A stretch of 30,815 nt of DNA from a virus. Its lineage: Duplodnaviria > Heunggongvirae > Uroviricota > Caudoviricetes. The stretch is taken from the IMG/VR virus record IMGVR_UViG_2531839668_000005; one strand, given 5' to 3'. The notes under the pieces are model-generated. The model was given only the letters and a program-made list of their open reading frames with translations. It was not told the origin of the DNA and searched no databases. The first letter of the stretch is position 1, and every line of letters starts with the position of its first letter. Positions 1 through 26,824 of this stretch are shown here, one piece after another. The position numbers and the translations under genes are program-made.

Positions 1-194
1 TTAACGGTATGAGTTCTCACGAATAGCCGATTTGCAAATTGTATCAAAAGACAACAAATTTCTCAGTTCAACTCCCTATTGGTAACTGAACTCATAGATA
101 AGGTCCGTTATGCTTTTCATAGGTAGACGAATACGGTAACTTTTCTCAATAGCACGATTCTATCCGCAGTACCAGCATAGGTGGAGAATGGATT

Positions 195-1040
195 TTGAAC
201 AATTGGTCACCAGAGCATACAAAAGTCATCAAGAGCTGGTTTAAGATTGATACATATCGCAAATTTGAAGACCTCTCATTGATTCAGTTCTACCATGAGA
301 TATGGGCCCGTAAATTGTTCTTTAAGGAGTATCGGGAAGAGTTTGAGAGCAGAGCACTTGCGGGTTACTTCTCAAAAATTTTTAGTGGCAATCCTTTTTT
401 AATTGAAGAAGGACAACTGGGATACATGACTCCTGCCAACAAACTTTTTCAACCTCCCCATTTCTTTCTCACAACTCTTGATCGCCTTGCTGAAACGAGC
501 ATTATTGCAATGCAACGTGGAGGTTTTCTTTGGCATGAAGGTGACAATTATTCTATAAACGCAGAGCTTCGAGAAGAATCACTTTCAGACATTATGCCAG
601 ATCAGTTTACACGAACGATCATGTTCGAGATTGATCTGGCAAGTGGCACAGACGAAGAGATTGCAGAGTCGCTTAAAGCTGCATTACCGCAGTGGCGTAA
701 AGTTAAGGGTATTGATGAAAACCCATTGGAATCTGTTCGTTTTGGATACGGAACTATCAAGAAACTCATCAGTTATCGTGTAATACCTATGCTTGATATC
801 CTGGTGTGGGCAGCCGTTAAAAAAATCCGTGTCTCTGACGACAGGTTATCCAGACTACTATATACAGACGATGACGAAGAAAGCGAAATGAGACAGTCCA
901 GCCAAATCAAAGATACCGACAGGCCTTTGGCTCTTAAATCCTGCACAACTGACTTTATCCGACAATTCCATTACTTCATGAACAAAAACAGCCATTTAAA
1001 GCAAATGAAAGTCTCTGATGTAATGAAACTATCGGATTAA
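195..1040 (+). CDS. hypothetical protein (281 aa)
   Basis: Long ORF in the track; TTG start at 195 preceded by GGTGGAG; followed by a hairpin plus T-run at 1086-1116. No family recognised. Confidence 0.45.
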   Translation: MNNWSPEHTKVIKSWFKIDTYRKFEDLSLIQFYHEIWARKLFFKEYREEFESRALAGYFSKIFSGNPFLIEEGQLGYMTPANKLFQPPHFFLTTLDRLAETSIIAMQRGGFLWHEGDNYSINAELREESLSDIMPDQFTRTIMFEIDLASGTDEEIAESLKAALPQWRKVKGIDENPLESVRFGYGTIKKLISYRVIPMLDILVWAAVKKIRVSDDRLSRLLYTDDDEESEMRQSSQIKDTDRPLALKSCTTDFIRQFHYFMNKNSHLKQMKVSDVMKLSD

Positions 1041-1085
1041 GAGTTAATTAATAACTGTCTGTTTTTTTATTATAAAAATAAACTA

Positions 1086-1116
1086 AAAGCACTACTGTAA
1101 ATGGTGCTTTTTTTTG
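1086..1116 (+). terminator. Rho-independent terminator candidate
   Basis: AAAGCAC...GTGCTTT inverted repeat followed by a run of T immediately downstream of the 195-1040 ORF. Confidence 0.5.
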
Positions 1117-1322
1117 CGATTTTTACTTTAAACCGGCCATTTTTACACTTGCTATAAAACAGGGGAATTTCAGCTACTCTCAAGTTCCCTTGTTCTGTAC
1201 TGCACCAACTTCGAGAAAACCATCCTGCACAGCAGCGAAGAACCTCCGCTTCAGGAGCTTCGCTCCTTTCTTTTCCCAACTGCTCGTATAGTGACTTCAC
1301 CGCAACGACAAGGGATAACGAA

Positions 1323-1529
1323 ATGAAAAATCAAGCAACCCGCCTCATACGCTTACCAGAAGTTCTCGAACGAACTGGCTACGGAAAAGCCTGGATCTAT
1401 CGTCTGATCAACGATGGCAAGTTTCCTGCTCCTGTCAAAATTGGAAGTCGTGCAATAGCTTTCGTTGAAAGTGAGATTGATAGCTGGATTCAGTCTGTTA
1501 TCGAAACAAGTCGAAATAATGTTGCTTAA
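1323..1529 (+). CDS. alpA: AlpA-family phage/island transcriptional regulator (excisionase-like HTH)
   Basis: 68 aa; sequence RLIRLPEVLERTGYGKAWIYRLINDGKFPAPVKIGSRAIAF is the characteristic AlpA/Xis-type helix-turn-helix of P4-like islands such as CP4-57. Confidence 0.8.
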   Translation: MKNQATRLIRLPEVLERTGYGKAWIYRLINDGKFPAPVKIGSRAIAFVESEIDSWIQSVIETSRNNVA

Positions 1530-1549
1530 TTGAATTTAGGAGAGATTTT

Positions 1550-1849
1550 ATGACTATCGAAGAATTTGTGAATGAAGAAAACCATATGTGTAATCTGGGC
1601 CAGGAACTATTCTTTAAAATTTTCGAGCCTGAATCGATTTATAATTTACCCAATAACGAGTTTAATAAAGAAATAATATATTGGCTCAGTCAGTATCTTG
1701 TCGGAAATTTGATACAACCTTTAGACGCGATCTCAGAGCTTAATGCTTCCAAACAAATATATGTTTACGAGACTTGGTTTTCGCTAATTAAATGCCCTGA
1801 TGAAATGAAACTCTTGGCGAAGCGGATAATTGAATATTTATTGGATTAA
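1550..1849 (+). CDS. hypothetical protein (99 aa)
   Basis: ORF beginning 21 bp after alpA with GGAGAG upstream of the ATG; no family recognised. Confidence 0.4.
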   Translation: MTIEEFVNEENHMCNLGQELFFKIFEPESIYNLPNNEFNKEIIYWLSQYLVGNLIQPLDAISELNASKQIYVYETWFSLIKCPDEMKLLAKRIIEYLLD

Positions 1850-2061
1850 GAAATTCATATGGCAATGCAAAGTTTTGCTGCATATTTTAGATTAAAACGT
1901 TAAAGAATAACTTGCATTATTTTTATGACCGTTCTTTTGCAAGGCAGTGAGATGGTTTTAGGTGGGTTGGGTGTGCATAATATTAATAGTGTTAGGACGG
2001 TTTTTAGTATTAAGAAGTAATAATAATAGCCATTGGTGAAAATTATGACGGGATTTTTACC

Positions 2062-2373
2062 ATGACATTTCATATTAATAAGTATAGGAAAGTTAAAATG
2101 AATAATTCAATCATAGTACCAGAAGATAAAGATTTTGTATGTGCGTTTGCGACTTCACCGAATAGCTTTTATGAGGCTATTGAATCCTATCGTAATTATG
2201 TAGATCTAGTCCAAGAGATAGAGTTCGAGCACGTCTTTCTTTATTTATTGTTTTCTATAGTGGTCAATGGTAGTACAGATATTACGATTAATGATGAAGT
2301 ACGAATGTGTATTGAGCAGCTTGTCTATGAAAAAAATAGTATCAGAAATAATAATGCAGATAAAAAGATGTAA
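2062..2373 (+). CDS. hypothetical protein (103 aa; true start may be the internal ATG near 2098)
   Basis: ORF in AT-rich DNA; no family recognised. Confidence 0.35.
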   Translation: MTFHINKYRKVKMNNSIIVPEDKDFVCAFATSPNSFYEAIESYRNYVDLVQEIEFEHVFLYLLFSIVVNGSTDITINDEVRMCIEQLVYEKNSIRNNNADKKM

Positions 2374-2544
2374 AGGCTGTAATAAATTATCATGGGTACA
2401 GACAGCACAAGTCTGTACCTTCTTATTTTAATTCAACAGATAATGATACATGAAAATTATGTGCTTTTGATAGTGGTCATCTGGTTTTCTATAGTAAACA
2501 TTATAGGATATAGGTTATCCTGAATTTTAATATTATGCTCTTTT

Positions 2545-2850
2545 TTATTTAAAAGAGCTGAAAAATACAGGATTTAAATGGTGTTGGTATTTAAACTCAG
2601 TAGGTATAGTAACACTCGCATCAATCAGTTCTGTGATAGCCTGATAAAATTGAGTGGGTGTAATATGTATCCCTTCTTGCTGTGCTATGGGCGTAACACG
2701 ATGAAAAATTAGGTAAACAATGCTCTTATCTGGCTTATACGACGCGATTAATGTAAGCAACCAGAATACATTGTGAATAGTAGTGTTAAGATTATGACTT
2801 TCAACTGATGATTGATTATTTTGAAAGTAAGTGGAGAGTCTTTTTTGCAT
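2545..2850 (-). CDS. hypothetical protein (101 aa)
   Basis: ORF immediately downstream of 2915-3478 on the same strand; no family recognised. Confidence 0.3.
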   Translation of the reverse strand: MQKRLSTYFQNNQSSVESHNLNTTIHNVFWLLTLIASYKPDKSIVYLIFHRVTPIAQQEGIHITPTQFYQAITELIDASVTIPTEFKYQHHLNPVFFSSFK

Positions 2851-2914
2851 AAAGGTATCGTTTTTTTGTTAATGTTATCACTCGCGTGGAGAAAATTACC
2901 ACGCTGTAATGTTT

Positions 2915-3478
2915 TTAAAATGGAATGCCGTCTGCAGGATTTCGTCTTCTGGAGTTTTTAACTGATTTTGTTTTACTCCAGGCACGATAAAAATTAAACG
3001 AATTGGCAAAATCTTCTGTCTCCAGTCTGGATTTTCTGAATTTATCCATCAGATCTTCATTGAAACGACGAGGAATTCCCTTAACGCACAAGTTTGAATT
3101 CAGATATACCTGATTATCTATGGTGTCACGAATAAGTATTTTTTTTCCAAATAACTCTTTGAATGCACGTGAAACATTTGATTTATTCAGCCCAAGCTCT
3201 TTGGCAGTACGTGACTGTGAAAAATCAGGAATAATATTACCGTAATCAATGGCTGAGAAGAGATAAATCACAATTCTAAATGCTGTAGGCGTCAAATCCA
3301 TTCTGGCGAGTGTCGCCATATTACCTTTAAATACCATTGAGAAATCGTCCTTGAAGGACGTCTTTTTATAGCTGGTTGCTTTAATTTTTATTTCTTCTAG
3401 ATCTTCGGGCATAACCTCTAATGCTTCTGCAATAATGGATTTTTGTTCTTTAGTTAATACAACACTTGTGATTGACAT
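2915..3478 (-). CDS. putative winged-helix/HTH DNA-binding protein (replication-initiator-like or regulator)
   Basis: 187 aa; segment AKELGLNKSNVSRAFKELFGKKIL resembles an HTH recognition helix; three iteron-like direct repeats lie about 450 bp away. Confidence 0.45.
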   Translation of the reverse strand: MSITSVVLTKEQKSIIAEALEVMPEDLEEIKIKATSYKKTSFKDDFSMVFKGNMATLARMDLTPTAFRIVIYLFSAIDYGNIIPDFSQSRTAKELGLNKSNVSRAFKELFGKKILIRDTIDNQVYLNSNLCVKGIPRRFNEDLMDKFRKSRLETEDFANSFNFYRAWSKTKSVKNSRRRNPADGIPF

Positions 3479-3939
3479 AATGGCTCCTTTTTTATTGTTG
3501 TGATTACAGACATGGCATATTTAATTTATTTGTCAATGGTTTTGATGATATTATTTTAATTATATCTTATTTGAATTTTTTATCCGTTCTTTGGTGGTGG
3601 TAATAGGTTGTAAAATTTGAAACGAGGGGTGCTAAATTTAACCATCACCTGTTATGTGATTGATAATTTTTGGTGCTGAAATTAACAACGGCATATTTTG
3701 TATAATCATATGATTTTATTAGATAATTTTTGATTTTGATCTGCAAGATAAAAGAGTGATAAAGAAATAAGAAACCACAGTTTTGCATTTGATCGATACT
3801 CAAGGCCTTGGTGTACCTGATGAAAACATTTTTATTATTGCTTTTCTTAAATAATATCATTTGTAAATTGAAGCCTGCGCAACTGTGTGTTACGCCCCAT
3901 TGGGCTTCAGAACATCACTATAGTGTTTTCAGTCAGTAT

Positions 3940-4053
3940 AAATACGCTTCGCGCACGAGTTCACAGTATTTAGGTTTACTGTCATTAAAAATACGCTTCG
4001 TGCAGAAGTTCAGAAAAATGGGGTTAGCTGTCAGCACAAATACGCTTCGCGCA
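3940..4053. repeat. three direct repeats of AAATACGCTTCG(C/T)GCA at 49-bp spacing (iteron-like)
   Basis: Copies at 3940-3955, 3989-4004 and 4038-4053; the first two continue with the related GAGTTCACAG / GAAGTTCAGA extension. Confidence 0.7.
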
Positions 4054-5084: not shown

Positions 5085-5363
5085 TTACTTATCAACGACC
5101 TGCCAGCCATCATCTGTTTTGACCAGCTTGACAGCCGCTGTGCGTTTTTCGTTATCGACAACAGCTGTTACATTGCATTTATAGCTTTTATCCGATAGTT
5201 TTTCGCAGTCGTGTTTTTTGACTGATTTTAACTTCCGCAGCATGTCAGGCGTGATATCGTTTCTCGCTATGGATTTAACGATGGCATTCGTCTGCTCCAC
5301 GACCTTATTCATCGCAGTGTAAATATCCTGCTCAGACGGTTCACTGGTGCAGCCGGTCAGCAA
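5085..5363 (-). CDS. putative lipoprotein, mature domain; signal peptide lies in an adjacent frame (possible frameshift)
   Basis: ORF begins L-T-G-C (lipobox) at a TTG. An ATG at 5402-5404 encodes MKTYAFTTLIASIF then stops; adding one T to the T6 run (plus-strand A6 at 5362-5367) would give MKTYAFTTLIASIFLLTGC..., a canonical lipoprotein signal peptide. Confidence 0.5.
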   Translation of the reverse strand: MLTGCTSEPSEQDIYTAMNKVVEQTNAIVKSIARNDITPDMLRKLKSVKKHDCEKLSDKSYKCNVTAVVDNEKRTAAVKLVKTDDGWQVVDK

Positions 5364-5430
5364 AAAATGGACGCAATGAGTGTGGTAAATGCATATGTTT
5401 TCATAAAATAATCCCAGACGGTAGAGTACG

Positions 5431-5829
5431 TTATTGAAAAAGGCCGGTTTTCATCTTGCTGTTGTTTTCAGAGAACGTCCACTTGCTGACGGTTTCGCCT
5501 TTAAATTCGATTTCCAGCGTTTTGGCCTGCGTCTGTGAACCCCCGGTCAGCAGTCCAATCACGGGAATGAATGTGGTGGCATCAAACTGATTGTTGTCCA
5601 TCGAATAAGTCCATTGTTCATTGCCACTATCAAGTGTAGTTTTGGTTTCGGGCTGACCGAATGCGGTAATGATTTCTGATTTCGTTGTTTTATTTTTGAT
5701 GATTTTCGACTGCAGACTTTGTGATGTTTCTTTTTTTAGATGCTGGTTGCCTGATGTTGAACAGCCAGAAATAAGTAAAGAAGAAATAAAAAACACAGAA
5801 ATCATGAATCTGTTCATAAGTTTTCTCAT
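5431..5829 (-). CDS. putative lipoprotein (132 aa)
   Basis: N-terminus MRKLMNRFMISVFFISSLLISGCS has a hydrophobic signal sequence and a LISGC lipobox. Confidence 0.6.
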   Translation of the reverse strand: MRKLMNRFMISVFFISSLLISGCSTSGNQHLKKETSQSLQSKIIKNKTTKSEIITAFGQPETKTTLDSGNEQWTYSMDNNQFDATTFIPVIGLLTGGSQTQAKTLEIEFKGETVSKWTFSENNSKMKTGLFQ

Positions 5830-5866
5830 ATTAATTTTTTATGTTTGCGGTGGTGTGAAATTAATA

Positions 5867-6142
5867 TCATCTTATAAAAACAACTCTGTCTGCATATTTC
5901 TTTTTAATAATGCAGATAAGAATAATGACGCTGGCAAAAAACGTAATGACTGAGGCAGGAGTGCTGCCGGTCAATGAAAACACTAACCAGGCGAGAGCTA
6001 ATGCCACGAATTGAAACAGGAATGCCACACTGAGTGGACTTTCACCATAGGCCACTTTTGCATGGCAACCTTTGCAAACCCGCACACCGTGTGGGCTTTG
6101 TGTAAAGCAGAAAGGGCAGCTAATCGTTTTATTATCCATCAT
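5867..6142 (-). CDS. small zinc-ribbon membrane protein (91 aa)
   Basis: CPFC...CKGC cysteine pairs at the N-terminus followed by two hydrophobic helices. Confidence 0.5.
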   Translation of the reverse strand: MMDNKTISCPFCFTQSPHGVRVCKGCHAKVAYGESPLSVAFLFQFVALALAWLVFSLTGSTPASVITFFASVIILICIIKKKYADRVVFIR

Positions 6143-6327
6143 GACTCCGTAGCCTGATTTAAGGTGATGTATTTTTGAACATTTTCGATGAATGAACTGC
6201 TTTAGTAAAATTGCTTGTACCGATCGATGGATCTCAGGCGATAGGTTATATCTATTATAACTAGATTATCGATCTATAAAAACGATCGATATCTTATTGA
6301 CTATCACTAAAGTATGGACTAGCTAAC

Positions 6328-7563
6328 TTATGGTGCAGGATGGTTGTTGTTTTTAAATGATTGTTCTTTATTGGTATTTGTTGTCATGGGATGACAGGGT
6401 GTCAGAATATGTAGGTGGAGGATTTGGTGGAAAGGATGTGCAGTGGCATGTAACAGAGACATGCCTCTGCGCCTGAGAAGTGCCACAATATGGACGAGCA
6501 ATACAAGCCATGAATACAGACGACGCTGGCGGGGTATCTGACGAGCTGTATTGTGCAGATTGCTCCTGAGCTGGATGATACCCACTGTCTCCTGTTGTCT
6601 TTCCAGACGAATTTTTTCTTCAAGCTGATGGATTTTCTCCAGAATCGTTTCCCGGTTTGCAGCCTGCTCTTCAGACTCGCATGATGGCACTGGCACTGGC
6701 ACTGGCACTGGCACTGGCACTGGCACTGGCGCGGTTGTAGGTTCTATTGGCCTCTGGGCTTCTTTCAGTAAACTCAGATGCTCAGGCGTAAAATCAATCA
6801 GTGCTTGCAGGGAAGACCAGCCATATTTTTTACCCAACTGAGATGCTTTAAAGGCAATACCCTGGTATTGAAATGAAAATCCACTCATTTTACCCGTAGT
6901 GGCGATATTGGGTTTGCAGGTCACTCCTTCCTGTTCCAGTAAGCGAACAAAGGTTAGTAAATCGGGATGGTGTGTTAATGCATTGTCGAGCAGGGCCTGC
7001 AACAGTGACTTAGGGCAGGGAGCTGCTGTGCGTTCTGCCATCATCAGTTCATTACGGGAAGGCTTCCTTTTATCCTGGCGGCTACTGCCGGTTACACCCG
7101 TAGTTTCGGTGAGGCCGTGTACTCTCTCCAGCTCACTGATAATCCGTGTGCCGATAAGATTTTCATTTTTCCCCAGGTACAGTTTTCCACCGACCATGTT
7201 AATACGACTTGCAATGATATGAATATGCTGCCCATCCGGATCATCGTGCATGATATAGCAGCGAAGATGGGTGTCAGTGAAGCCCATTCGGGCCATATAA
7301 TCGTCAGCGAATGCTGCCCACTGTCTGTTTGACAGTTTCTCACCCTTTGGCAGGCGAAGTGAATTATGCCAGACAGGTTTGGCGACATCGGGACGCAGCA
7401 GTCGGGTGCCTTCAAATTCACTTATAAGCTCAGCAGCAGTGCTACCCGTCATGTTGCCACCGATGACATAAGGCGTGATTTTGTGGTGAGAACCTGACTT
7501 CAGGCTATAAATAACCACACCTGTGAATTGTTTACCCCTTTTTATTTTCTGCATGCCTTTCAT
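6328..7563 (-). CDS. mobA: MobA/relaxase-family mobilization protein (C-terminal boundary uncertain)
   Basis: N-terminal region contains the relaxase histidine triad context (HDDPDGQHIHIIASRI) and an early Tyr; start overlaps the mobC stop. Includes a (Pro-Val)7 linker; sequence after the linker is low-complexity and may not all be coding. Confidence 0.7.
   Translation of the reverse strand: MKGMQKIKRGKQFTGVVIYSLKSGSHHKITPYVIGGNMTGSTAAELISEFEGTRLLRPDVAKPVWHNSLRLPKGEKLSNRQWAAFADDYMARMGFTDTHLRCYIMHDDPDGQHIHIIASRINMVGGKLYLGKNENLIGTRIISELERVHGLTETTGVTGSSRQDKRKPSRNELMMAERTAAPCPKSLLQALLDNALTHHPDLLTFVRLLEQEGVTCKPNIATTGKMSGFSFQYQGIAFKASQLGKKYGWSSLQALIDFTPEHLSLLKEAQRPIEPTTAPVPVPVPVPVPVPVPSCESEEQAANRETILEKIHQLEEKIRLERQQETVGIIQLRSNLHNTARQIPRQRRLYSWLVLLVHIVALLRRRGMSLLHATAHPFHQILHLHILTPCHPMTTNTNKEQSFKNNNHPAP
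6688..6729. repeat. (CACTGG)7 perfect hexanucleotide tandem repeat
   Basis: Seven uninterrupted CACTGG units on the plus strand; on the minus strand they encode the PVPVPVPVPVPVPV linker inside mobA. Confidence 0.95.
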
Positions 7564-7967
7564 GGGTCTGACTCCAGAAATGTTGAGGGAATAAGGTGAT
7601 CCCTGAGAGTTTTGATTTGTCTGCGCAGGGCGAAGAGTTCTGTACGGGTCAGTTCGCTGTCAGGGCTTTTGCTGTCGAGATGACTCAACAGGTAGTTTAA
7701 ATCCTGTGAAAGGCTGCCAAGTTTTATCCATGCTTCACGATTGATTTCTGGCAGAACCGGCGGGAGTTTATTCAGGGAAGCCATCCTGAGCCATTCTCCT
7801 TTTTTATACTGACCTCTTTTACTGTCGAGAATAATTAATTCTTCTTCATTTAATCTGACACTGATGCAGTGATGTCGTATTTCATTCTCAGGAAATTTGT
7901 CAGTATGGAATTTACCGCGTTTTGATACTCTGGTTATATCATCATCATTACTCATGTCACTGTTCAT
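7560..7967 (-). CDS. mobC: MobC-like relaxosome accessory protein
   Basis: 135-aa ORF directly upstream of and overlapping the relaxase gene start, the conserved mobC-mobA arrangement; ELFALRRQIKTLRDHL region is typical of the family. Confidence 0.6.
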   Translation of the reverse strand: MNSDMSNDDDITRVSKRGKFHTDKFPENEIRHHCISVRLNEEELIILDSKRGQYKKGEWLRMASLNKLPPVLPEINREAWIKLGSLSQDLNYLLSHLDSKSPDSELTRTELFALRRQIKTLRDHLIPSTFLESDP

Positions 7968-8168
7968 AGTTATCCTTTTATTTCATGTTTATTACTACAG
8001 ATAACCGATGAAATGAATAAGTCAAGTTGTTACGGGATAAATAATTTAATTATCTGGATTAAAAAAGGTATACCATTTGACAAATAGTATACCCACGAGG
8101 ACATATCAGATTAATGGTCATTAAATGAATCCTTGCAGACTAAGAAAAGGGTTGTTTACTCCAGAGTT

Positions 8169-16927: not shown

Positions 16928-18157
16928 TTATGCGGCAATAACTTTGTATTTTTGAGACGAAACATAGTCACTCCACCATTGCATGAGAACCACACGTTCT
17001 GTGAGATACTCTGCACGATTGTAGGCTGCAATTATTTCATCTTTTTTCGAGTGGGCAAGGGCGGCTTCTAAGACATCAGTTCTAAACTTGCCACACTCCT
17101 CAGCCGCCGTTCTAGCGATTGATCGCATACCATGAGCTACAAGCTCACCTCCGAAGCCCATACGGATTATAGCCGCATTAGCTGTTTGTTCATGCATGTG
17201 ATTGAGTGGAGCTTTGATACTGGGAAAAACCCACTCTCTATGCCCGCTGATGGCTTTCATTGAATCCAAGACTCGCAAAGATTCTTTGCTCAGTGGAACT
17301 TTGTGAGGCTTCTTCATTTTCATAAACTCCGCCGGGATGTTCCACATGCTGGTTTCTATATCAATATCTGACCATCTTGTGCGAACAGCTTCACCAGGGC
17401 GAACCCATGTGAGAAGTTGCCACTCAATCAGTAGCCTTGTTTCTAAACGGATAGAAGCATTGTTTAGAGCAACCAGGAAGCGGGGGAGTTCGGAAGGGGG
17501 TAATGCTGGCATATTCTGTTTTTTTGGCTTGCTGAACCGTTGCCCCAGGTTGTCAGCCGGATTGAATTCTATGAGTTCTTCTGTTGCTGCATAGCGGAAA
17601 ATTTCATTCAGGCGGGATATGACGCGGCGAAGTGTTTCAAGGACACCTCGTTTTTCTATGGGGTCTAAATGCTGTTTAAGCATTTTAGGGCGAATCTCCT
17701 TAATGGGGGTATCACCCAACGTTGGAAAGATATTTCTCTCTAGGCTTCGCCAGATGTCGTTAGCATGATCCTGGGAGATGCCTGACGTTTTGACTTTCTC
17801 ATCAAGCCACTTCTTGGCTACTGCTTGAAATGTATGTTCCGTTGCATCCTTAAGGGCATTGGCTTTGTGGGTGTTATGAACTTGTGGGTCTATACCATTT
17901 GCAAGCAACGACAAGTACTCATCACGTAAAGCTCGTGCCTTCGCAAGTGTAAGGTGAGGATAGGTTCCTAAGCTCACCTTAGTTCGCTTTTTGGTCACAG
18001 GCACTGCATATCTGAAATACCAATTTTTCTTTCCTCCCTTCGCTAAGGGGGCGATTCGCAGGAGCAAACCATCGCCGTCAAAAAGGTTAACCTCTTTCTC
18101 GGCAGGTTTGGTGCTTTTGATTTCAGTGTCAGTGAGCTTCTTAGCGATTTTTGCCAT
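16928..18157 (-). CDS. int: P4-type tyrosine integrase
   Basis: From the ATG at 18155-18157: MAKIAKKLTDTEIKSTKPAEK...GLLLRIAP...WYFRY... N-terminal arm-binding domain and C-terminal HGMRS...Y catalytic region typical of P4/CP4-57 integrases; adjacent to the ssrA-derived att repeat. Confidence 0.85.
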   Translation of the reverse strand: MAKIAKKLTDTEIKSTKPAEKEVNLFDGDGLLLRIAPLAKGGKKNWYFRYAVPVTKKRTKVSLGTYPHLTLAKARALRDEYLSLLANGIDPQVHNTHKANALKDATEHTFQAVAKKWLDEKVKTSGISQDHANDIWRSLERNIFPTLGDTPIKEIRPKMLKQHLDPIEKRGVLETLRRVISRLNEIFRYAATEELIEFNPADNLGQRFSKPKKQNMPALPPSELPRFLVALNNASIRLETRLLIEWQLLTWVRPGEAVRTRWSDIDIETSMWNIPAEFMKMKKPHKVPLSKESLRVLDSMKAISGHREWVFPSIKAPLNHMHEQTANAAIIRMGFGGELVAHGMRSIARTAAEECGKFRTDVLEAALAHSKKDEIIAAYNRAEYLTERVVLMQWWSDYVSSQKYKVIAA

Positions 18158-18323
18158 GTTTGGGACCCTCATGTTTTGGACCCTTTGTGTTGGGTCCCAA
18201 AAAGGGTGCCATAACGAGTAGATTCTAGCAATTCTCGGTAGACTACTATAGACGTAAAAAAGCCCGCAAGGCTGGTTCCATGCGGGCTTGATAGACTTCA
18301 CTGAACTTCAATATATCAAAAAT

Positions 18324-18368
18324 TGGTGGAGCTGGCGGGAGTTGAACCCGCGTCCGAAATTCCTACAT
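18324..18368 (-). other. ssrA: partial ssrA (tmRNA) 3' end, attachment-site repeat
   Basis: Plus strand TGGTGGAGCTGGCGGGAGTTGAACCCGCGTCCGAAATTCCTACAT is the reverse complement of the 3' terminus of E. coli tmRNA as recalled; the match stops after 45 nt, so only the 3' end is present. Confidence 0.8.
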
Positions 18369-19130: not shown

Positions 19131-20147
19131 TTACCTCAAATTAAATAAAGGATTTTTAGTTACGGCATCTTCTAAATGGTCTGGGGCGAAGTGTGCATAG
19201 ACCATGGTCATTTTTATATCTGAATGTCCTAGGATATCCCGCAAAACCAATATGTTTCCACCATTCATCATAAAATGGCTAGCGAATGTATGACGCAGAA
19301 CGTGAGTACATTGACCCTCTGGCAGATCGATACCAGCCCGCTTTACTGCACGCTCAAAGGCTTTTCTGCATGGGGTGAATAACTTCCCCCTATTCTTAGG
19401 CAGTTCTTCATATAAATCCTTAGAAATAGGCACAGTTCGGTTTTTCTTGCCTTTGGTCTTGGTATAAGTGATACGGTATTTTGATACCTGATGACTCTGC
19501 AGGTTTTCGGCTTCGCTCCAGCGTGCGCCGGTGGCCAGGCATATTTTTGCAATCAAAAGCAGGCTGGAGCTTTGAGAATCGGCGCAGGCATCCAGCAGAC
19601 GTTTAATTTCTTCCGGGGTCAGGAACGCCAATTCACTCTCAGCAATTTTAAATGTTGGCAGCCCAGCAAGCGGGTTGGGGGCTGACCAGTGGCCCAGCTT
19701 TTTCAGCGTACCAAAAACAGATGATAGATTGCGCTGTTCAAGGTTTACCGTGCGGGGCTTAACGGGCGACATAAACGTGCCATCTTCATTTCGTACTTCA
19801 CCTTTTAACCGTGCTTCGCGGTATTTCGTAAAGTCACCGGCTGTCAGTTCTGAGGCGATGGGGTCGCCTAGACCATTACAGATAATTCTAAGTTTCGCCA
19901 TGAGGCGCTTGGGGTCTGCGAGTGTCTGACCATACAGGGAATACCAAAGCTCAATTAATTCTGATAGGTGTCGCCGATCATCCTTTTCTCCTAACCACGG
20001 TTTTTTGTTCACTTCTTCCATTGTGAAGCTTTCAAATGCAATGGCTTCGCCTTTGGTAGCAAATTGCTTACGCACGCGCTTACCATTGCGTCCATTGGGA
20101 TAGCACTCACACAACCATTTTCCGTTCGGCTGTTTTCTGATGGTCAT
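19131..20147 (-). CDS. int: P2/186-type phage tyrosine integrase
   Basis: N-terminus ...YPNGRNGKRVRKQFATKGEAIAFE... and C-terminal HVLRHTFASHFMMNGG...LGHSDIKMTMVYAH catalytic region; followed by the CI repressor gene on the same strand. Confidence 0.85.
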   Translation of the reverse strand: MTIRKQPNGKWLCECYPNGRNGKRVRKQFATKGEAIAFESFTMEEVNKKPWLGEKDDRRHLSELIELWYSLYGQTLADPKRLMAKLRIICNGLGDPIASELTAGDFTKYREARLKGEVRNEDGTFMSPVKPRTVNLEQRNLSSVFGTLKKLGHWSAPNPLAGLPTFKIAESELAFLTPEEIKRLLDACADSQSSSLLLIAKICLATGARWSEAENLQSHQVSKYRITYTKTKGKKNRTVPISKDLYEELPKNRGKLFTPCRKAFERAVKRAGIDLPEGQCTHVLRHTFASHFMMNGGNILVLRDILGHSDIKMTMVYAHFAPDHLEDAVTKNPLFNLR

Positions 20148-20150
20148 AAG

Positions 20151-20789
20151 TTAGAGGTTCTTGATTACTTTGACTGCACGTCCTACAACTTCCACATCAT
20201 CTACAGAACATTCAAATGAAGTGTCATCTTGGCTAACTACTATTTTGTTTCCGGGTATGCGCGCAATTTTGACGATGCTTTTAACTCCGTCCATATCGAC
20301 TAACCAGAAGCCATTACTGACTTGTTTAACGGACGTATCCACTACAAAGCTATTATTAGCTGTTTTAACAAATAAAGCGTTGGATGAGTCACCATCGAGC
20401 AGGCTGCTATCAAGAAGAATTTCATCACTTGCCTGCAGTTCGCCGTTCTTCAGTTCAACACGTTTGATGCTAGGAGCAACGATCTTAGAAAGTGGTCTTA
20501 CAGTGACGGGAGGTTCATTTTTGAGATTTGTTTCTTCGTTCTCACACGCATACATATCTCCTTGACCAGTAGCCAGCCATAGAAGGGAAGCTCCTGTTTC
20601 AAGGGCACATTGAATTACCCATTCGGCAGGAAAGCTATCCCTTAAGTATCTGTTAGCCATAGTGCTTTTGGATACTTCCAGATGTTCGCAGAGCTGCTGT
20701 CGTGAGCTGAAGTTGTAAGCCTTAATAAGCCTGTTAATTGCATCGCGCCCACCACTATCATTTCCCGCTTTGATTAAACTCATAATCAA
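20151..20789 (-). CDS. cI: 186-like CI immunity repressor
   Basis: CALETGASLLWLATGQGDMY and C-terminal WLVDMDGVKSIVKIARIPGNK...FECSVDDVEVVGRAVKV closely resemble phage 186 CI as recalled. Confidence 0.75.
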   Translation of the reverse strand: MIMSLIKAGNDSGGRDAINRLIKAYNFSSRQQLCEHLEVSKSTMANRYLRDSFPAEWVIQCALETGASLLWLATGQGDMYACENEETNLKNEPPVTVRPLSKIVAPSIKRVELKNGELQASDEILLDSSLLDGDSSNALFVKTANNSFVVDTSVKQVSNGFWLVDMDGVKSIVKIARIPGNKIVVSQDDTSFECSVDDVEVVGRAVKVIKNL

Positions 20790-20794
20790 ACCTC

Positions 20795-20823
20795 TTGACG
20801 TATATAAAAAGTGATCTTAATAT
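20795..20823 (+). promoter_or_regulatory. sigma70-type promoter candidate for the early lytic operon (pR-like)
   Basis: TTGACG (20795-20800), 17-bp spacer, TAATAT (20818-20823), in the cI to apl intergenic switch region. Confidence 0.45.
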
Positions 20824-20899
20824 CCATTCATGGTTTGAAAAGCAAAACCAAACCACATAAAACAAGATAAAACGAAACCAAACTAAGAGATACTGCACT

Positions 20900-21058
20900 A
20901 TGAGTACTGATATTTCAATTCGTGTACCAAAAGAGATGGCAACGCCTGCTGAGTTCGCTGAATGGGAAGGTATCTCCCGCGGCTCTGTGTATCAAAAAAT
21001 TCACCATGGTCAGCTTGCTAAATACATGGTCAAGAAGGAAAAAACAAAGGCCGCGTAA
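20900..21058 (+). CDS. Apl/Cox-like small HTH excision-regulatory protein (52 aa)
   Basis: Small ORF, not in the supplied track, at the position of apl/cox in P2/186-like phages; translated by eye as MSTDISIRVPKEMATPAEFAEWEGISRGSVYQKIHHGQLAKYMVKKEKTKAA. Confidence 0.5.
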   Translation: MSTDISIRVPKEMATPAEFAEWEGISRGSVYQKIHHGQLAKYMVKKEKTKAA

Positions 21059-21173
21059 GCCTGCGTTATTTAATGTACAAAACCGATCAGGTCCGTGAAT
21101 CCCTCGGTCATTCCAACTTCCGCGTCATTGTTGGTAAGTAAGTTCAATTATGAGAACTTTCTAAGGGGGTAGC

Positions 21174-21683
21174 ATGTTTGATTATAAGATTTCCAAACAC
21201 CCGCATTTTGATGAAGCCTGTAGAGCTTTTGCACTTCGTCACAATATGGCGAAGCTGGCAGAACGTGCAGGAATGAATGTCCAGACTCTGCGAAACAAAC
21301 TCAACCCAGATCAACCGCATCAGCTCAATGCGCCAGAAATCTGGCTGCTTACCGATCTGACTGAAGATTCAACGCTGATAGATGGTTTTCTGGCACAGAT
21401 TCACTGCCTGCCATGTGTACCGATTAATGAGGTAGCAAAAGAGAAACTGCCGCATTACGTCATGAGTGCAACCGCAGAGATCGGGCGTGTTGCTGCAGGT
21501 GCGGTATCTGGCGATGTAAAAACCAGTGCCGGTCGTCGTGATGCCATCAGCAGCATTAATTCTGTAACACGACTGATGGCGCTGGCGGCTGTTTCATTGC
21601 AGGCCCGTTTACAGGCTAACCCTGCGATGGCGAGTGCAGTTGATACTGTGACTGGCCTCGGTGCTTCATTCGGTTTGCTGTGA
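21174..21683 (+). CDS. cII: 186-like CII regulatory protein
   Basis: 169 aa, HTH region AKLAERAGMNVQTLRNKLNP; position and size match phage 186 CII. Confidence 0.65.
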   Translation: MFDYKISKHPHFDEACRAFALRHNMAKLAERAGMNVQTLRNKLNPDQPHQLNAPEIWLLTDLTEDSTLIDGFLAQIHCLPCVPINEVAKEKLPHYVMSATAEIGRVAAGAVSGDVKTSAGRRDAISSINSVTRLMALAAVSLQARLQANPAMASAVDTVTGLGASFGLL

Positions 21684-21690
21684 GGTGCTT

Positions 21691-21987
21691 ATGCTGACGA
21701 AAGAACCATCATTTGCGTCGCTGCTGGTAAAACAAAGTCCGGCAATGCACTACGGTCACGGCTGGATCACGGGTGAGGATGGAAAACGCTGGCATCCATG
21801 TCATTCACAAGATGAATTGCTGTCTGAATTGACCACGAGGAAACGGAGAAAGTCCAAATGTATGCGGCAGAAAGTGAAGTGGTTTATCAGTTTCGTTACA
21901 GAGGGGAGAGTTATTCAGTACCTGAAGATGATTTGCTCTGTTGCTATCCGTCATTGTCGGGCGATGGCAGTTACTTTTTCACGTTAA
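21691..21987 (+). CDS. hypothetical phage early protein (possibly Fil-like); 3' boundary uncertain
   Basis: ATG at 21691 preceded by GAGGTG; overlaps the next ORF in another frame, so one of the two boundaries is wrong. Confidence 0.3.
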   Translation: MLTKEPSFASLLVKQSPAMHYGHGWITGEDGKRWHPCHSQDELLSELTTRKRRKSKCMRQKVKWFISFVTEGRVIQYLKMICSVAIRHCRAMAVTFSR

Positions 21988-22082
21988 AGGATGGGACGTT
22001 TTTACGGGGAGAGCAGGTTAAAGAGACGATACGAAAAAATGTATCTCCTCTTGAGCGTTACCGTAAGAACAAAGAACGATAG
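21858..22082 (+). CDS. hypothetical phage early protein (74 aa)
   Basis: ATG with GGAGAAAG upstream; within the early operon. Confidence 0.4.
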   Translation: MYAAESEVVYQFRYRGESYSVPEDDLLCCYPSLSGDGSYFFTLKDGTFLRGEQVKETIRKNVSPLERYRKNKER

Positions 22083-22104
22083 CTGCGTTTGGGGGATATG
22101 AAGT

Positions 22105-22446
22105 ATGGCAATTAATGGCGCTGCAGCAACTGTTCCATTAAGCCCCGGTGAACGCCTGAATGGACTTAATCACATTGCGGAGTTAAGGGCGAAAGTTTTT
22201 GGCATGAATATTGAGTCAGAGCTTGAGCGGTTTATTAAAGATATGCGTGATCCACGGGATATCAATAATGAACAAAATAAACGGGCACTGGCTGCCATAT
22301 TCTTTATGGCAAAAATTCCAGCTGAACGTCATAGCATCAGCATTAATGAGCTGACCACTGACGAAAAGCGGGAGCTGATTAAAGCAATGAATCATTTTCG
22401 TGCAGTGGTGAGCTTATTTCCCAGACGGCTAACCATGCCGAATTAA
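22105..22446 (+). CDS. hypothetical phage early protein (113 aa)
   Basis: ORF in the early operon; no family recognised. Confidence 0.45.
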   Translation: MAINGAAATVPLSPGERLNGLNHIAELRAKVFGMNIESELERFIKDMRDPRDINNEQNKRALAAIFFMAKIPAERHSISINELTTDEKRELIKAMNHFRAVVSLFPRRLTMPN

Positions 22447-22513
22447 CCAACTAATGAAATTAATGGCGTAAACCCGCCGGGCATCCCTTTATCTAAATTC
22501 AGGAGAATTGATT

Positions 22514-22747
22514 ATGCGTAATATTGAAACCCTCACGACTAAAACCGGACCGGATGATGCAGGGCTTAATATTTTACTGACAGAGGCTCGTCTGGAAGAA
22601 CGCCGGGCAAGGGCTGAAGCAATGGCAGCTCGCCTTGATAGCCTGGCGTGTCATATCACATCCCGCCAACTAAACCACGTCGAAGCGGCAGAACTGCTGC
22701 GTGTGACTGCTGAAGCAATCCAGAACGAAGCGCAGGAGATCCACTGA
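22514..22747 (+). CDS. hypothetical phage early protein (77 aa from the ATG at 22514)
   Basis: AGGAG at 22501-22505 before the ATG at 22514; stop overlaps the next start (TGATG). Confidence 0.45.
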   Translation: MRNIETLTTKTGPDDAGLNILLTEARLEERRARAEAMAARLDSLACHITSRQLNHVEAAELLRVTAEAIQNEAQEIH

Positions 22748-22974
22748 TGGCTGATGCAATGGATCTCGTACAGCAGCGAGTTGAAGAAGAACGCCAACGT
22801 CATATCCGTGCTGCCCGTGCCAAAGCGCCGGGCGTGTCCCGCGTGCTTTGCGTTGAGTGTGAAGCGCCAATTCCGCCAGCACGCCGCCGTGCCATTCCGG
22901 GGGTGCAGCTTTGCATTACCTGTCAGGAAATCGCAGAGCTGAAAGGCAAACATTACAACGGAGGTGCTGTATGA
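22747..22974 (+). CDS. TraR/DksA-family C4 zinc-finger protein
   Basis: 75 aa with CVECEAPIPPARRRAIPGVQLCITCQ (Cys-x2-Cys ... Cys-x2-Cys), as found in the P2-like zinc-finger early protein. Confidence 0.7.
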   Translation: MADAMDLVQQRVEEERQRHIRAARAKAPGVSRVLCVECEAPIPPARRRAIPGVQLCITCQEIAELKGKHYNGGAV

Positions 22975-23828
22975 GCACCATCCTGAAATGGGCGGGAAAT
23001 AAAACCGCCATTATGTCCGAACTGAAAAAACACCTTCCTGCTGGCCCGCGACTGGTTGAACCTTTCGCGGGTTCCTGTGCTGTGATGATGGAGACGGATT
23101 ACCCCAGCTATCTGGTTGCGGATATTAATCCTGATTTAATCAACCTCTATAAAAAGGTTGCTGCTGATTGTGAATCGTTTATATCTCGCGCCAGAGTTTT
23201 ATTTGAGATCGCAAACAGGGAGGTGGCTTATTACAACATAAGGCAGGAGTTTAATTACTCCACTGAAATTACTGATTTCATGAAAGCGGTATATTTCCTG
23301 TATCTCAATCGTCACGGTTACCGTGGTTTATGTCGCTATAACAAGAGCGGGCATTTCAACATTCCCTACGGTAATTATAAAAATCCGTATTTCCCTGAAA
23401 AAGAAATTCGCGCATTTGCAGAAAAGGCCCAGCGAGCAACGTTTATCTGCGCCAGCTTTGATGAAACGCTGGCGATGTTGAAGGCGGGGGATGTGGTGTA
23501 TTGCGATCCGCCGTATGACGGTACGTTTTCCGGCTATCACACTGATGGTTTCACTGAAGATGACCAGTATCACCTGGCATCTGTTCTTGAACATCGGTCA
23601 TCAGAAGGACATCCGGTCATTGTTTCTAACAGTGACACATCCCTGATCCGTTCGCTGTATCGCAATTTTACTCACCACTACATCAAGGCAAAACGCAGCA
23701 TCGGTGTGGCAGCTGGCGAGGGTAAATCAGCAACAGAAATCATTGCTGTTTCCGGGCCGCGCTGCTGGGTGGGATTTGATTATTCGCGTGGCGTGGATAG
23801 TTCTGCCGTGTACGGAGTACGTGCATGA
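22971..23828 (+). CDS. dam: DNA adenine methyltransferase (Dam-like, N6-adenine, DPPY motif)
   Basis: [11 protein letters not shown]...FAGSCAV (AdoMet-binding region) and YCDPPYDG catalytic motif; GGAGG upstream of the ATG at 22971; stop overlaps the gene A start (ATGA). Confidence 0.85.
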
Positions 23829-26239
23829 GCCATGCCGATATGAACAACTGCTGCGGCTTTAACGAGGCTGCCGCATCGTTCTCATGGAACAGCCCGAAAA
23901 AGGCCATTAACCCTTATCTGGACCCGGCGGAAGTTGCGCCGGTTTCTGCGCTTTCAAACCTGATCACTCTGTACGCTGCCGATAACGAGCAGGAACAGCT
24001 GCGCCGCGAGGCACTGAGTGATCAGGTCTGGGAGCGTTATTTCTTTAATGAATCCCGTGATCCTGTCCAGCGCGAAATGGAGCAGGATAAGCTCATTAGT
24101 CGGGCAAAGCTGGCGCATGAGCAGCAGCGTTTTAATCCAGATATGGTCATTCTGGCGGACGTCAATGCCCAGCCTTCCCATATCAGCAAGCCGCTGATGC
24201 AACGTATTGAATACTTCAGCAGCCTGGGCAGGCCAAAGGCTTATTCCCGCTATTTGCGTGAGACGATTAAGCCATGTCTGGAACGACTGGAGCATGTACG
24301 CGACAGTCAGCTATCCGCTTCTTTTCGCTTTATGGCAAGCCATGAAGGGCTGGATGGCCTGCTTATCCTGCCTGAAATGAGTCAGGATCAGGTGAAGCGC
24401 CTGTCTACCCTTGTCGCTGCGCATATGAGCATGTGCCTTGATGCAGCTTGTGGTGATTTGTATGCCACCGATGACGTTAAGCCAGAAGAAATCCGCAAGA
24501 CATGGGAAAAGGTGGCAGCGGAAACCCTGCGTCTGGATGTTATCCCGCCTGCGTTTGAGCAACTCCGTCGGAAAAGAAACCGCCGTAAACCCGTGCCCTA
24601 TGAACTCATTCCGGGTTCGCTGGCGCGTATGTTGTGCGCTGACTGGTGGTACCGGAAATTATGGAAGATGCGTTGCGAATGGCGGGAAGAGCAGTTGCGT
24701 GCTGTCTGCCTGGTCAGCAAAAAAGCATCTCCCTATGTCAGCTATGAAGCCGTGATGCATAAACGTGAGCAGCGCCGTAAGTCGCTGGAGTTTTTTCGTT
24801 CTCATGAACTGGTGAACGAAGACGGCGACACGCTGGACATGGAGGATGTGGTAAACGCCAGCAGCAGCAACCCTGCGCATCGCCGCAATGAGATGATGGC
24901 CTGTGTTAAAGGCCTGGAGCTTATCGCGGAAATGCGTGGTGACTGCGCCGTTTTCTACACCATTACCTGTCCGTCACGTTTCCATTCCACGCTCAATAAC
25001 GGCAGACCAAACCCAACCTGGACAAATGCGACGGTAAGACAAAGCAGCGATTATCTGGTCGGCATGTTTGCTGCATTTCGTAAGGCGATGCACAAAGCCG
25101 GGTTGCGCTGGTATGGCGTGCGGGTGGCTGAGCCGCATCATGACGGTACGGTTCACTGGCACCTGTTGTGTTTCATGCGCAAAAAAGACCGCCGTGCCAT
25201 TACTGCATTGTTGCGTAAGTTTGCCATCCGTGAAGACCGCGAGGAACTGGGTAATAACACTGGTCCACGCTTTAAATCTGAGCTGATAAACCCGCGCAAA
25301 GGAACACCGACAAGCTACATCGCGAAATACATTAGTAAGAACATTGACGGGCGTGGTCTGGCTGGCGAGATCAGCAAGGAAACGGGTAAATCCCTGCGTG
25401 ATAACGCTGAATACGTTAATGCCTGGGCGTCTCTGCATCGTGTTCAGCAATTCCGCTTCTTTGGTATTCCGGGGCGTCAGGCTTACCGTGAACTGCGATT
25501 GCTGGCTGGTCAGGCGGCAAGGCAACAGGGCGACAAAAAAGCAGGTGCGCCGGTACTGGATAACCCGCGCCTTGATGCCATCCTGGCTGCTGCTGATGCT
25601 GGTTGTTTTGCCACTTACATCATGAAGCAGGGTGGTGTACTGGTTCCCCGCAAATATCACCTCATCAGAACTGCTTATGAAATTAACGAAGAGCCGACCG
25701 CCTATGGCGATCACGGCATTCGTATTTATGGCATCTGGTCACCCATTGCAGAGGGCAAGATCTGCACTCATGCAGTGAAGTGGAAAATGGTTCGTAAAGC
25801 CGTTGACGTTCAGGAGGCGGTAGCCGACCAGGGCGCTTGCGCCCCTTGGACTCGTGGCAATAACTGTCCCCTTGCTGAAAATTTGTACCAACAAGGGAAA
25901 GACAAATCAGCTGATGGAGATACCAGAACGGATATCACCCGCATGGATGACAAGGAGTTGCACGATTACCTGCACAGTATGAGCAAAAAAGAGCGCCGGG
26001 AACTGGCAGCAAGGTTACGCCTGGTGAAACCGAAACGGCGTAAAGACTACAAACAGCGAATTACAGATCATCAGCGACAGCAGCTCGTGTATGAACTGAA
26101 GTCCAGGGGATTTGATGGCAGCGAGAAAGAGGTCGATTTACTGCTTCGCGGCGGCAGTATTCCGTCAGGAGCAGGCCTGCGTATCTTCTATCGGAACCAG
26201 CGTTTGCAGGAAGATGATAAGTGGCGAAACCTGTATTAA
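23825..26239 (+). CDS. P2/186 gene-A-type rolling-circle replication initiator (HUH endonuclease)
   Basis: HWHLLCF (HUH motif) and SYIAKYISK (catalytic tyrosine motif); roughly 800 aa, as for P2 gpA. Confidence 0.85.
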
Positions 26240-26331
26240 TTACGCGGGTTAACAATTCGTGCTCTTAATAATACCAGGCATATCAGGCCGATGAGCGTAA
26301 AAAAACGTTTTACATCAGTAAGATTATTATA

Positions 26332-26351
26332 TACTGTAAATATAAACAGTG
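26332..26351. promoter_or_regulatory. LexA (SOS) box
   Basis: taCTGTaaatataaACAGtg: exact CTGT-N8-ACAG with an AT-rich spacer, about 40 bp upstream of the 26392 ORF. Confidence 0.6.
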
Positions 26352-26391
26352 GTTATTTATACAGTATTTCTTTGGTGTTATAGGAGGAAAG

Positions 26392-26580
26392 ATGCAGGAC
26401 TATTTTTTGGAGTCTTTGAAGCTCCAGCGCATTGATTTTTTTCTTAAGCTTGTAGCGGCTAGTGAGTGTAGTGATGAAGAGAAGGGGCTGGCTTTGCAGT
26501 GGGTTTCTGAACTGACAGATGAACTCATGGCAAAAATCAGAACCCACGAATACAACCGCTCAATGGATGTCATCAGTTGA
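26392..26580 (+). CDS. hypothetical protein, possibly the N-terminal part of a Tum-type SOS-inducible antirepressor
   Basis: GGAGG before the ATG; immediately downstream of the LexA box; overlaps the upstream extension of the DinI-like ORF in another frame. Confidence 0.4.
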   Translation: MQDYFLESLKLQRIDFFLKLVAASECSDEEKGLALQWVSELTDELMAKIRTHEYNRSMDVIS

Positions 26581-26590
26581 GGTGACTTTT

Positions 26591-26824
26591 ATGCGCATTG
26601 AAATAATGATCGATAAAGAGCAGAAGATTAGCCAGTCTACCCTGGACGCCTTTGAATCCGAGCTTTACCGCAATCTGCGCCCCCTGTATCCCAAAACGGT
26701 AATTCGTATCCGTAAAGGTAGCTCTAACGGTGTGGAACTGACCGGACTGCAACTGGACGAAGAAAGGAAACAAGTAATGAAAATTATGCAGAAGGTGTGG
26801 GAAGACGACAGCTGGCTGCATTAA
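26591..26824 (+). CDS. DinI-family protein (Tum C-terminal-domain-like)
   Basis: MRIEIMIDKEQ...YPKTVIRIRKGSSNGVELTG...VWEDDSWL parallels E. coli DinI (MRIEVTIAK...VSVRYAAANNLSVIG...TWESADDWF) as recalled. Confidence 0.7.
   Translation: MRIEIMIDKEQKISQSTLDAFESELYRNLRPLYPKTVIRIRKGSSNGVELTGLQLDEERKQVMKIMQKVWEDDSWLH

Follow-up and report, generated by a model that had tools for sequence, protein, structure and literature searches.

Where would conjugative transfer begin on a chromosomal island that carries mobilization genes, and what kind of element is such an island? The question is raised by a 30,815-nt stretch of DNA (the window) filed as a virus record of the Caudoviricetes (IMG/VR record IMGVR_UViG_2531839668_000005). 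From the sequence alone, its positions 6328-8168 had been read as overlapping mobC and mobA genes with a candidate origin of transfer (oriT) in the spacer just upstream, on an island that might be an integrative mobilizable element (IME) or have captured a mobilizable plasmid. Our comparison with related loci places the predicted oriT elsewhere, at 12534-12601, beyond inserted cargo genes and not at the palindrome of the spacer. The window probably holds an ~18.5-kb IME inserted at the 3′ end of the Escherichia coli ssrA gene, a grading that covers the whole reading, including the oriT position and the mechanism proposed below. The corrections made here concern the predicted position of the oriT and the palindrome, now taken for a terminator.

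Mobilization genes and predicted origin of transfer

Both mobilization genes are present on the minus strand and overlap as the original prediction had stated, with the stop codon of mobC and the start codon of the relaxase gene sharing 4 nt (ATGA, 7560-7563). The relaxase gene (6328-7563) encodes a 411-aa protein. A profile search had been called for to assign its family, and it matched Pfam PF03432 well above the curated cut-off (E = 1.6e-22; 80.7 bits versus 24.6; residues 32-151). Mutated active-site residues, which had been named as evidence against a working module, are not seen. Y19 and the H106, D108, H113, and H115 residues of an HxDx4HxH motif are intact and invariant in an alignment of seven sequences (A2) that reaches down to 43% identity. 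Tyr19 is most likely the catalytic tyrosine, and the His triad probably holds the metal. The HUH nuclease domain takes up the N-terminal ~260 aa and is followed by a (PV)7 linker, encoded by seven tandem TGGCAC units (6685-6726), and by a variable C-terminal part. Over residues 6-253, identity to the relaxase domain of IncQ-3 MobA/RepB proteins (pGNB2 type) is 43%, and the first ~250 residues are 50% identical to a relaxase found on small Pseudomonas plasmids. The nearest NCBIfam models are MOBP-type, TraI/MobA(P), with every score far under the cut-off; the protein is accordingly not a member of the NikB or TraI equivalogs. A phmmer comparison with PDB sequences returned only a low-complexity artifact of the PV repeat and no similarity to a solved relaxase structure. 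The (PV)7 stretch is a slippage-prone linker joining the nuclease domain and the C-terminal part. Its copy number varies among relatives (399 to 413 aa in total length), with 36 extra bases in three chicken-derived strains and a longer PV run in the relaxase of a Salmonella contig.

The gene directly upstream (7560-7967, minus strand) encodes a 135-aa protein assigned, by homology to the MobC of IncQ-3 plasmids, Pfam matches of its homologues, and synteny, to the MobC/NikA-like ribbon-helix-helix relaxosome accessory proteins. It is 40% identical to the annotated IncQ-3 MobC (tblastn, E about 1e-13). Among 15 aligned homologues, 12 are matched by the NikA-like profile (best E, 2.9e-10) and 7 by the MobC profile (best E, 4.6e-6), and a ribbon-helix-helix start, R-x-H-C-V-S-V-R-L-N-x-x-E-L, is visible in the alignment. 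A MobC-like profile run against PDB sequences gave only coiled-coil noise. A mobC-like open reading frame (ORF) lies directly upstream of the relaxase gene in nearly all of the ~95 related loci, and the pairing is therefore not due to chance. The dN/dS ratios of mobC (0.08 to 0.29) and of the relaxase gene (0.16 to 0.21) indicate purifying selection on both. Together, these comparisons support the annotation of the pair as a MobC-like accessory protein and a relaxase with intact catalytic residues.

To locate the oriT, 80 related loci were collected, one genome per species. The window sequence was left out of the training of the family covariance model (R1), and the secondary structure of the oriT alignment was set by hand and checked by pair counts. 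Run over the whole window with filters off, R1 returned one strong match, at 12534-12601 on the minus strand (62.9 bits, E = 1.1e-15). This is the strand of the relaxase gene, and the distance to mobC, which lies downstream, is 4.6 kb. The match consists of the core AGCAAGGGCTAAC at 12586-12598, followed by a hairpin and then by CCCCTTGC. The invariant 13-mer of the family, AGCAAGnnnTAAC (consensus AGCAAGGGCTAAC), has its single exact occurrence in the window at these same core positions. Relatives whose relaxases are 42 to 63% identical carry AGCAAGG[GT][CG]TAAC, a hairpin, and GTTnCCTTGC ~100 to 200 nt upstream of mobC. The core and its inverted repeat are also shared with IncQ-3 plasmids, which have AGCAAGGnnTAAC on the mob strand upstream of mobC. 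Read on the opposite strand, the family element contains the 12-bp core TTACACCTTGCT, published as the putative IncQ-3 oriT (PMC7557826).

Pairing patterns also speak for this element. In the family inner helix, both partners have changed in three of the six pairs, and pairing holds in 82.6% of cells. Within the inner stem (12558-12585), the window has AACCC...GGGTT, whereas E. coli ZYB62 (L098, 9374-9441) and EC195 have AACTC...GAGTT; this compensatory pair between E. coli variants supports a functional hairpin. In every one of the 47 loci with an oriT, this element is located upstream of mobC and shares the strand of the relaxase gene. The distance to mobC stays within 300 nt in 30 loci, is 1.1 to 3 kb in 10, and exceeds 3 kb in 7. 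These last seven are confined to two clades, that of the window and the one intermediate between it and the distant relatives. oriTs remote from the relaxase gene are known in F, R391, pVCR94, and ICEclc (bioRxiv 10.64898/2026.01.13.699239). The oriT sequence found no match in plasmid DNA, nor did a gathering-threshold Rfam scan of the whole window return any. Two ParB/RepB-like genes (13312-15101, minus strand; Pfam RepB and ParB_N) lie 0.7 kb from the oriT, and no ParA-type match was found among the island ORFs. Partition-related proteins are reported in a 2025 paper to bind oriT regions and enhance transfer (PMC12421886).

The island at ssrA and its distribution

The original prediction held in classing the island as a possible IME, because an integrase, ssrA-derived repeats, AlpA, and an oriT are present and neither a type IV secretion system (T4SS) nor a coupling protein is found. 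The P4-type tyrosine integrase gene (16928-18301, minus strand; Pfam Arm-DNA-bind_3, Phage_int_M, and Phage_integrase) neighbors the last 45 nt of ssrA (18324-18368, minus strand), which are identical to the 3′ end of the ZYB62 tmRNA gene and represent the integrase-proximal attachment repeat. The distal-end module (195-1529, plus strand) comprises a DUF6387 gene (195-1040; 843 bp plus the stop codon; Pfam E = 1.2e-80) and alpA (1323-1529; Phage_AlpA, E = 1.4e-19), whose product is likely the excision factor. A candidate distal repeat, TTGGTGGGCTGGCG, lies in the same orientation ~82 to 95 nt to the left of window base 1 and reads as a degenerate copy of the ssrA end (TTGGTGG-GCTGGCG). This motif is found beyond DUF6387 in three loci and beside another integrase in the two others; strain MLI104K2 has no exact copy. 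Pfam and NCBIfam scans of the island ORFs detected no T4SS or coupling-protein family, and no ORF exceeds 518 aa, a length too short for a coupling protein. A PHROGs search matched only two families of unknown function.

Searches of the window proteins against the related loci (tblastn), together with RefSeq annotation, gave the backbone order: ssrA, P4-type integrase, large serine recombinase, two ParB/RepB-like genes, oriT, variable cargo, mobC, relaxase, zinc-ribbon protein, two lipoproteins, ~1 kb of noncoding DNA with iterons, a 187-aa helix-turn-helix (HTH) protein, alpA, DUF6387, and the candidate distal repeat. E. coli ZYB62 has this order in full, with a type I restriction-modification (R-M) system, IS1, and ankyrin genes in the 10.7 kb between oriT and mobC. 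The block of integrase, recombinase, and ParB genes remains linked to oriT, mobC, and relaxase even at 43 to 49% identity (L073, L074, and L077; Kosakonia, Erwinia, and Pantoea), and the two parts therefore form one element rather than two neighboring islands. The integrase adjoins ssrA in strains without a P2-like prophage. In the window, such a prophage (19131-30815; integrase, CI, replication endonuclease, and Dam methylase) is lodged between the true ssrA and the ssrA copy of the island. The truncated portal gene of the prophage is immediately preceded by a TIR-domain gene (~28895-29497). Compared with the chromosome of E. coli O157:H16 strain 98-3133 (NZ_CP051001.1), the window showed a reported 100.0% identity but a few indels over 25 kb, in the variable region beside ssrA. 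The large serine recombinase (15091-16651, minus strand; Pfam Resolvase and Recombinase) is split in the window into two ORFs of different frames and is a single 518-aa coding sequence in that RefSeq entry.

A megablast search of 5,426 complete E. coli genomes detected the mob region in 206; every copy was chromosomal, and none was on a plasmid. In the same set, the oriT is found in 569 genomes and mobC-relaxase homologues, by blastn, in 368, again all chromosomal. Strain EC195 (L097) has kept the integrase, serine recombinase, both parB-like genes, the oriT, and a type I R-M system, but its mob genes are gone; thus, oriT-only islands exist. Outside E. coli, relaxases 83 to 98% identical are encoded in Klebsiella, Enterobacter, Citrobacter, Salmonella, Raoultella, and Cronobacter, and near-identical islands are found in unrelated E. 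coli from humans, pigs, dogs, and chickens. In two Enterobacter hormaechei loci (L012 and L013), the block from mobC-relaxase to the HTH gene sits beside a different, 489-aa tyrosine integrase at mutS, without alpA or DUF6387 and with a bgl-type sugar operon upstream. Different integration modules can thus accompany the mob backbone. In kind, the island is an ordinary one, an IME with a plasmid-related mob module, and a literature search found no paper describing its family. A more speculative reading, which we hold to be less likely than not, is that it represents an undescribed and widespread family of mobilizable islands in Enterobacterales, whose relaxase-less derivatives, reduced in many E. 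coli to integrase, ParB, and oriT, could be mobilized in trans if a sibling island provided the relaxase and a conjugative helper were present.

The segment between oriT and mobC is the variable cargo slot; its occupants in the window are IS3, a DUF4928 fragment, the ankyrin gene, and three small ORFs. Its degraded part (10159-11711, minus strand; Pfam and RefSeq annotation) consists of the DUF4928 fragment (10159-10431), whose match covers only the C-terminal 87 residues, and the IS3 transposase genes (10540-11711). An ankyrin-repeat gene (8169-9122) and a 146-aa gene (9137-9577), identified by Pfam ankyrin matches and synteny, occupy 8169-9577 on the minus strand. Across the clade, the ankyrin, 146-aa, and 118-aa genes (8169-9936) stand in the same order between the cargo and mobC, at times with a second ankyrin gene. 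The slot of other strains contains NACHT/RelA-SpoT genes or a type I R-M system. Among the loci compared, type I R-M, NACHT, and ankyrin genes were found between oriT and mobC, and a SIR2 gene was found at the DUF6387 end of one locus.

On the other side of the relaxase gene, synteny across the family defines a 91-aa zinc-ribbon membrane protein and two small lipoproteins (5085-6327, minus strand). The noncoding stretch 6143-6327 is 85% identical to a Salmonella contig, versus 66 to 77% for the flanking proteins. GATC occurs 4 times in its 185 nt, a density ~7.5 times that of the window on average, and it contains an 8-bp inverted repeat, TATCGATC-N9-GATCGATA, with both arms changed in Salmonella (ATTGATC...GATCAAT). 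This stretch may be a Dam-sensitive promoter/operator for the downstream zinc-ribbon and lipoprotein genes.

Several points weigh against the IME reading. The 135-aa protein of the window itself falls below Pfam thresholds, with E = 0.042 and 14.4 bits versus a cut-off of 27 for NikA-like (PF21983) and no match to MobC (PF05713). About 16 close-clade loci gave no oriT match in the 10 kb upstream, where the oriT may be further out or lost. The distal repeat is short (15/16 nt), scores marginally above shuffles, and lies outside the window. The strand and position of the nick are set by analogy, and excision, nicking, and transfer are proposals drawn from sequence. Finally, IS3 has degraded the cargo slot, and the window has the serine recombinase in two pieces, both of which may mean that the whole island is impaired.

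At its strongest, this last point becomes the alternative that the module is an inactive remnant on an island decaying in place, with transfer from this strain lost. The insertion of IS3 and the truncated DUF4928 gene between oriT and mobC, the split recombinase, and the degeneracy of the distal repeat fit such decay, as do the many E. coli islands at the ssrA site without mob genes (oriT in 569 genomes versus mob genes in 368; EC195). We nevertheless regard it as unlikely: mobC, relaxase, integrase, alpA, and oriT are intact, the dN/dS values stay at 0.08 to 0.29 with invariant catalytic residues, and the near-identical islands in unrelated E. coli, with close relatives in six or more genera, argue for recent transfer of the family. 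A mobilizable element remains the preferred reading.

The mobC spacer and the HTH-iteron block

The spacer upstream of mobC (7968-8168) is AT rich and contains a palindromic pair, as had been observed. Its GC content is 30.3%, versus 38.7% for the island and 46.6% for the two mob genes. On the plus strand, GGTATACC (8067-8074) and GTATACCC (8087-8094) form the outer ends of a hairpin (8066-8094) whose 13-bp stem encloses a 3-nt loop. Folded as RNA, the hairpin reaches -13.6 kcal/mol (z = -3.7), a value equaled by 0 of 200 shuffles and therefore more than chance. A T6 run directly follows it on the transcribed strand, 75 nt past the stop codon of the ankyrin gene, and a consensus scanner labels the hairpin with its T6 (8061-8094, minus strand) terminator-like. 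In diverged relatives, unrelated hairpins with T-rich tracts take the place of the palindrome at the same position. The Klebsiella and Enterobacter copies of the spacer are ~90% identical throughout, not above the conservation of coding DNA. Diverged Salmonella and E. coli variants keep only a promoter-like block (TTGACT at 8025-8020, a 16-nt gap, and TATCTG at 8003-7998) and the ribosome-binding site (RBS) of mobC (AAGGA, 7977-7973), which together span 7973-8025 on the minus strand. By its conservation, block 8025-7998 is probably the mobC promoter; a consensus promoter scanner made no call on it. The spacer can thus be read as a terminator of the ankyrin gene, then a putative mobC promoter, and then the RBS.

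The original prediction had placed the oriT in this spacer, with the GGTATACC/GTATACCC inverted repeat taken here as the relaxosome binding site beside the nick. The location is the usual one for MobC/MobA systems, just upstream of mobC, and 30 of the 47 relatives do have their oriT there. Moreover, the inverted repeat is significant and kept in close relatives, with other inverted repeats at the same place in diverged ones. However, R1 with filters off found nothing in the spacer at E up to 10, and the invariant 13-mer had no match there with up to 3 mismatches. A hairpin plus T6 on the transcribed strand after a gene end is terminator anatomy, and a canonical oriT lies 4.6 kb upstream on the same strand. 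We consider an oriT in the spacer very improbable. A further stretch, TGCAAGGATTCA (~8130), bears a weak likeness by eye to the oriT core and was dropped, having more than 3 mismatches from the invariant 13-mer and no model score.

The original prediction had further taken a Rep-like gene and iterons as signs of a captured plasmid. These correspond to a block at 2915-4053 (minus strand; weak Pfam matches and repeat search) with the 187-aa HTH protein gene (2915-3478; HTH_36, E = 0.001; Phage_rep_O, E = 0.01) and three 49-bp iteron-like repeats (3920-4053). The 16-mer core of the repeats, AAATACGCTTCGYGCA, recurs in two or three copies at exactly 49-bp spacing in 23 related loci of the close clade and is absent from more distant relatives. 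Tandem Repeats Finder had shown no iterons in the relatives; the exact 16-mer search did, in the close clade. Islands from many genera, inserted at various sites, preserve one order of HTH gene, iterons, mob genes, alpA, and DUF6387, so that the HTH-iteron block belongs to the island backbone. By analogy with PIMEs (see below), it may support replication after excision. A comparison of the island DNA with 72,556 plasmids (PLSDB) gave no true plasmid match, and none of the island ORFs encodes a RepA helicase, RepC initiator, or RepB primase. OX345050.1, considered as a plasmid match to the mob region, is a 3.6-kb linear Salmonella contig with the island gene order and was rejected. Capture of a small mobilizable plasmid (Rep gene, iterons, and mobC/mobA) by a preexisting island is hence the least probable explanation, and we set it aside: the relaxase domain and oriT core common to IncQ-3 plasmids and the weak Rep-O-like similarity of the HTH protein beside the iterons are in its favor, but no PLSDB plasmid matches and no RepA, RepC, or primase gene is present, all 206 (megablast) to 368 (blastn) matching E. 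coli genomes carry the mob region on the chromosome, the supposed plasmid block is backbone across genera and insertion sites, and any shared plasmid ancestry is old (43% identity).

Proposed transfer cycle and related systems

For an IME with the oriT at 12534-12601, transfer may proceed as follows. Excision by AlpA and the integrase would yield a circular form of the island, at whose oriT the MobC/NikA-like protein and the relaxase would then assemble; the former may bend or mark this site. The relaxase would nick the plus strand in or beside GTTAGCCCTTGCT, with strand and position proposed by analogy, and stay attached via Tyr19. A coresident conjugative plasmid or integrative and conjugative element would provide the coupling protein and the pore for strand export. 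With the predicted nicked strand, the ParB/recombinase/integrase side would enter the recipient first, and the cargo and mob genes last. Cargo genes have probably been inserted between oriT and mobC in this lineage. Some IncQ-3 plasmids are mobilized with the RK2 system and others are not.

If active, the island would move defense and other cargo among the chromosomes of E. coli, Klebsiella, Enterobacter, Salmonella, and Citrobacter through the conjugation pores of others. Should relaxase-less islands indeed be mobilized in trans, the result would be a two-tier hitch-hiking network that moves defense genes at ssrA. For annotation, the lesson is that an oriT does not always lie in the mobC-adjacent spacer; in this lineage, it appears displaced by 2 to 11 kb through cargo insertions. 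A family covariance model locates a candidate oriT where a palindrome search picks a probable terminator. The conserved 13-mer plus hairpin offers an oriT probe for genome surveys, including the ~200 E. coli genomes that seemingly have an oriT and no relaxase.

Among known systems, the IncQ-3 plasmids (pGNB2 type) share with the island a mobC directly before the relaxase gene, with relaxase domain and MobC 43% and 40% identical, respectively. They also share an oriT core (TTACACCTTGCT in IncQ-3) beside an inverted repeat, on the strand opposite the mob genes. In contrast to these plasmids, the island is chromosomal and integrative and has no relaxase-primase fusion and no RepA or RepC. The C-terminal half of its relaxase is unrelated, and its core reads GTTAGCCCTTGCT and lies 4.6 kb from mobC. 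NikA/NikB of R64 and TraJ/TraI of RP4 likewise pair a small ribbon-helix-helix accessory protein with a PF03432-type relaxase. The nick region of RP4 is ATCCTG/C.

ROD21-like (EARL) islands, including ICEKp258.2, have a P4-type integrase at the insertion-site end and an AlpA-type factor with an 843-bp DUF6387 gene at the other (PMC6035254, PMC10763509). They and this island are both low in GC, follow a relaxase-without-T4SS logic, and have an alpA-DUF6387 end module. Membership was considered and rejected: EARL islands use tRNA-Asn, a MobA/MobL (MOBQ) relaxase, TraD, and a type IV pilus, whereas this island uses ssrA and a PF03432 relaxase and has no TraD or pilus genes. It adds a MobC-like partner, a serine recombinase, and two ParB-like genes, and the end module alone is shared. 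PIMEs (Pseudomonadota integrative mobilizable elements) have been shown to excise, replicate, and be mobilized by IncP helpers (bioRxiv 10.64898/2026.01.12.698999). Like the island, they are integrative and combine an integrase and alpA with a replication module, an oriT of their own, and large defense cargo. They are, however, defined by trbJ, trbL, and repA, often with traJ, and by an IncP-like oriT, none of which is found in the island, and membership was likewise rejected. The cryptic prophage CP4-57 of E. coli K-12 occupies the same ssrA insertion site with an integrase and alpA. Its gene content differs, the island having in addition a relaxase, mobC, an oriT, ParB-like genes, and a serine recombinase.

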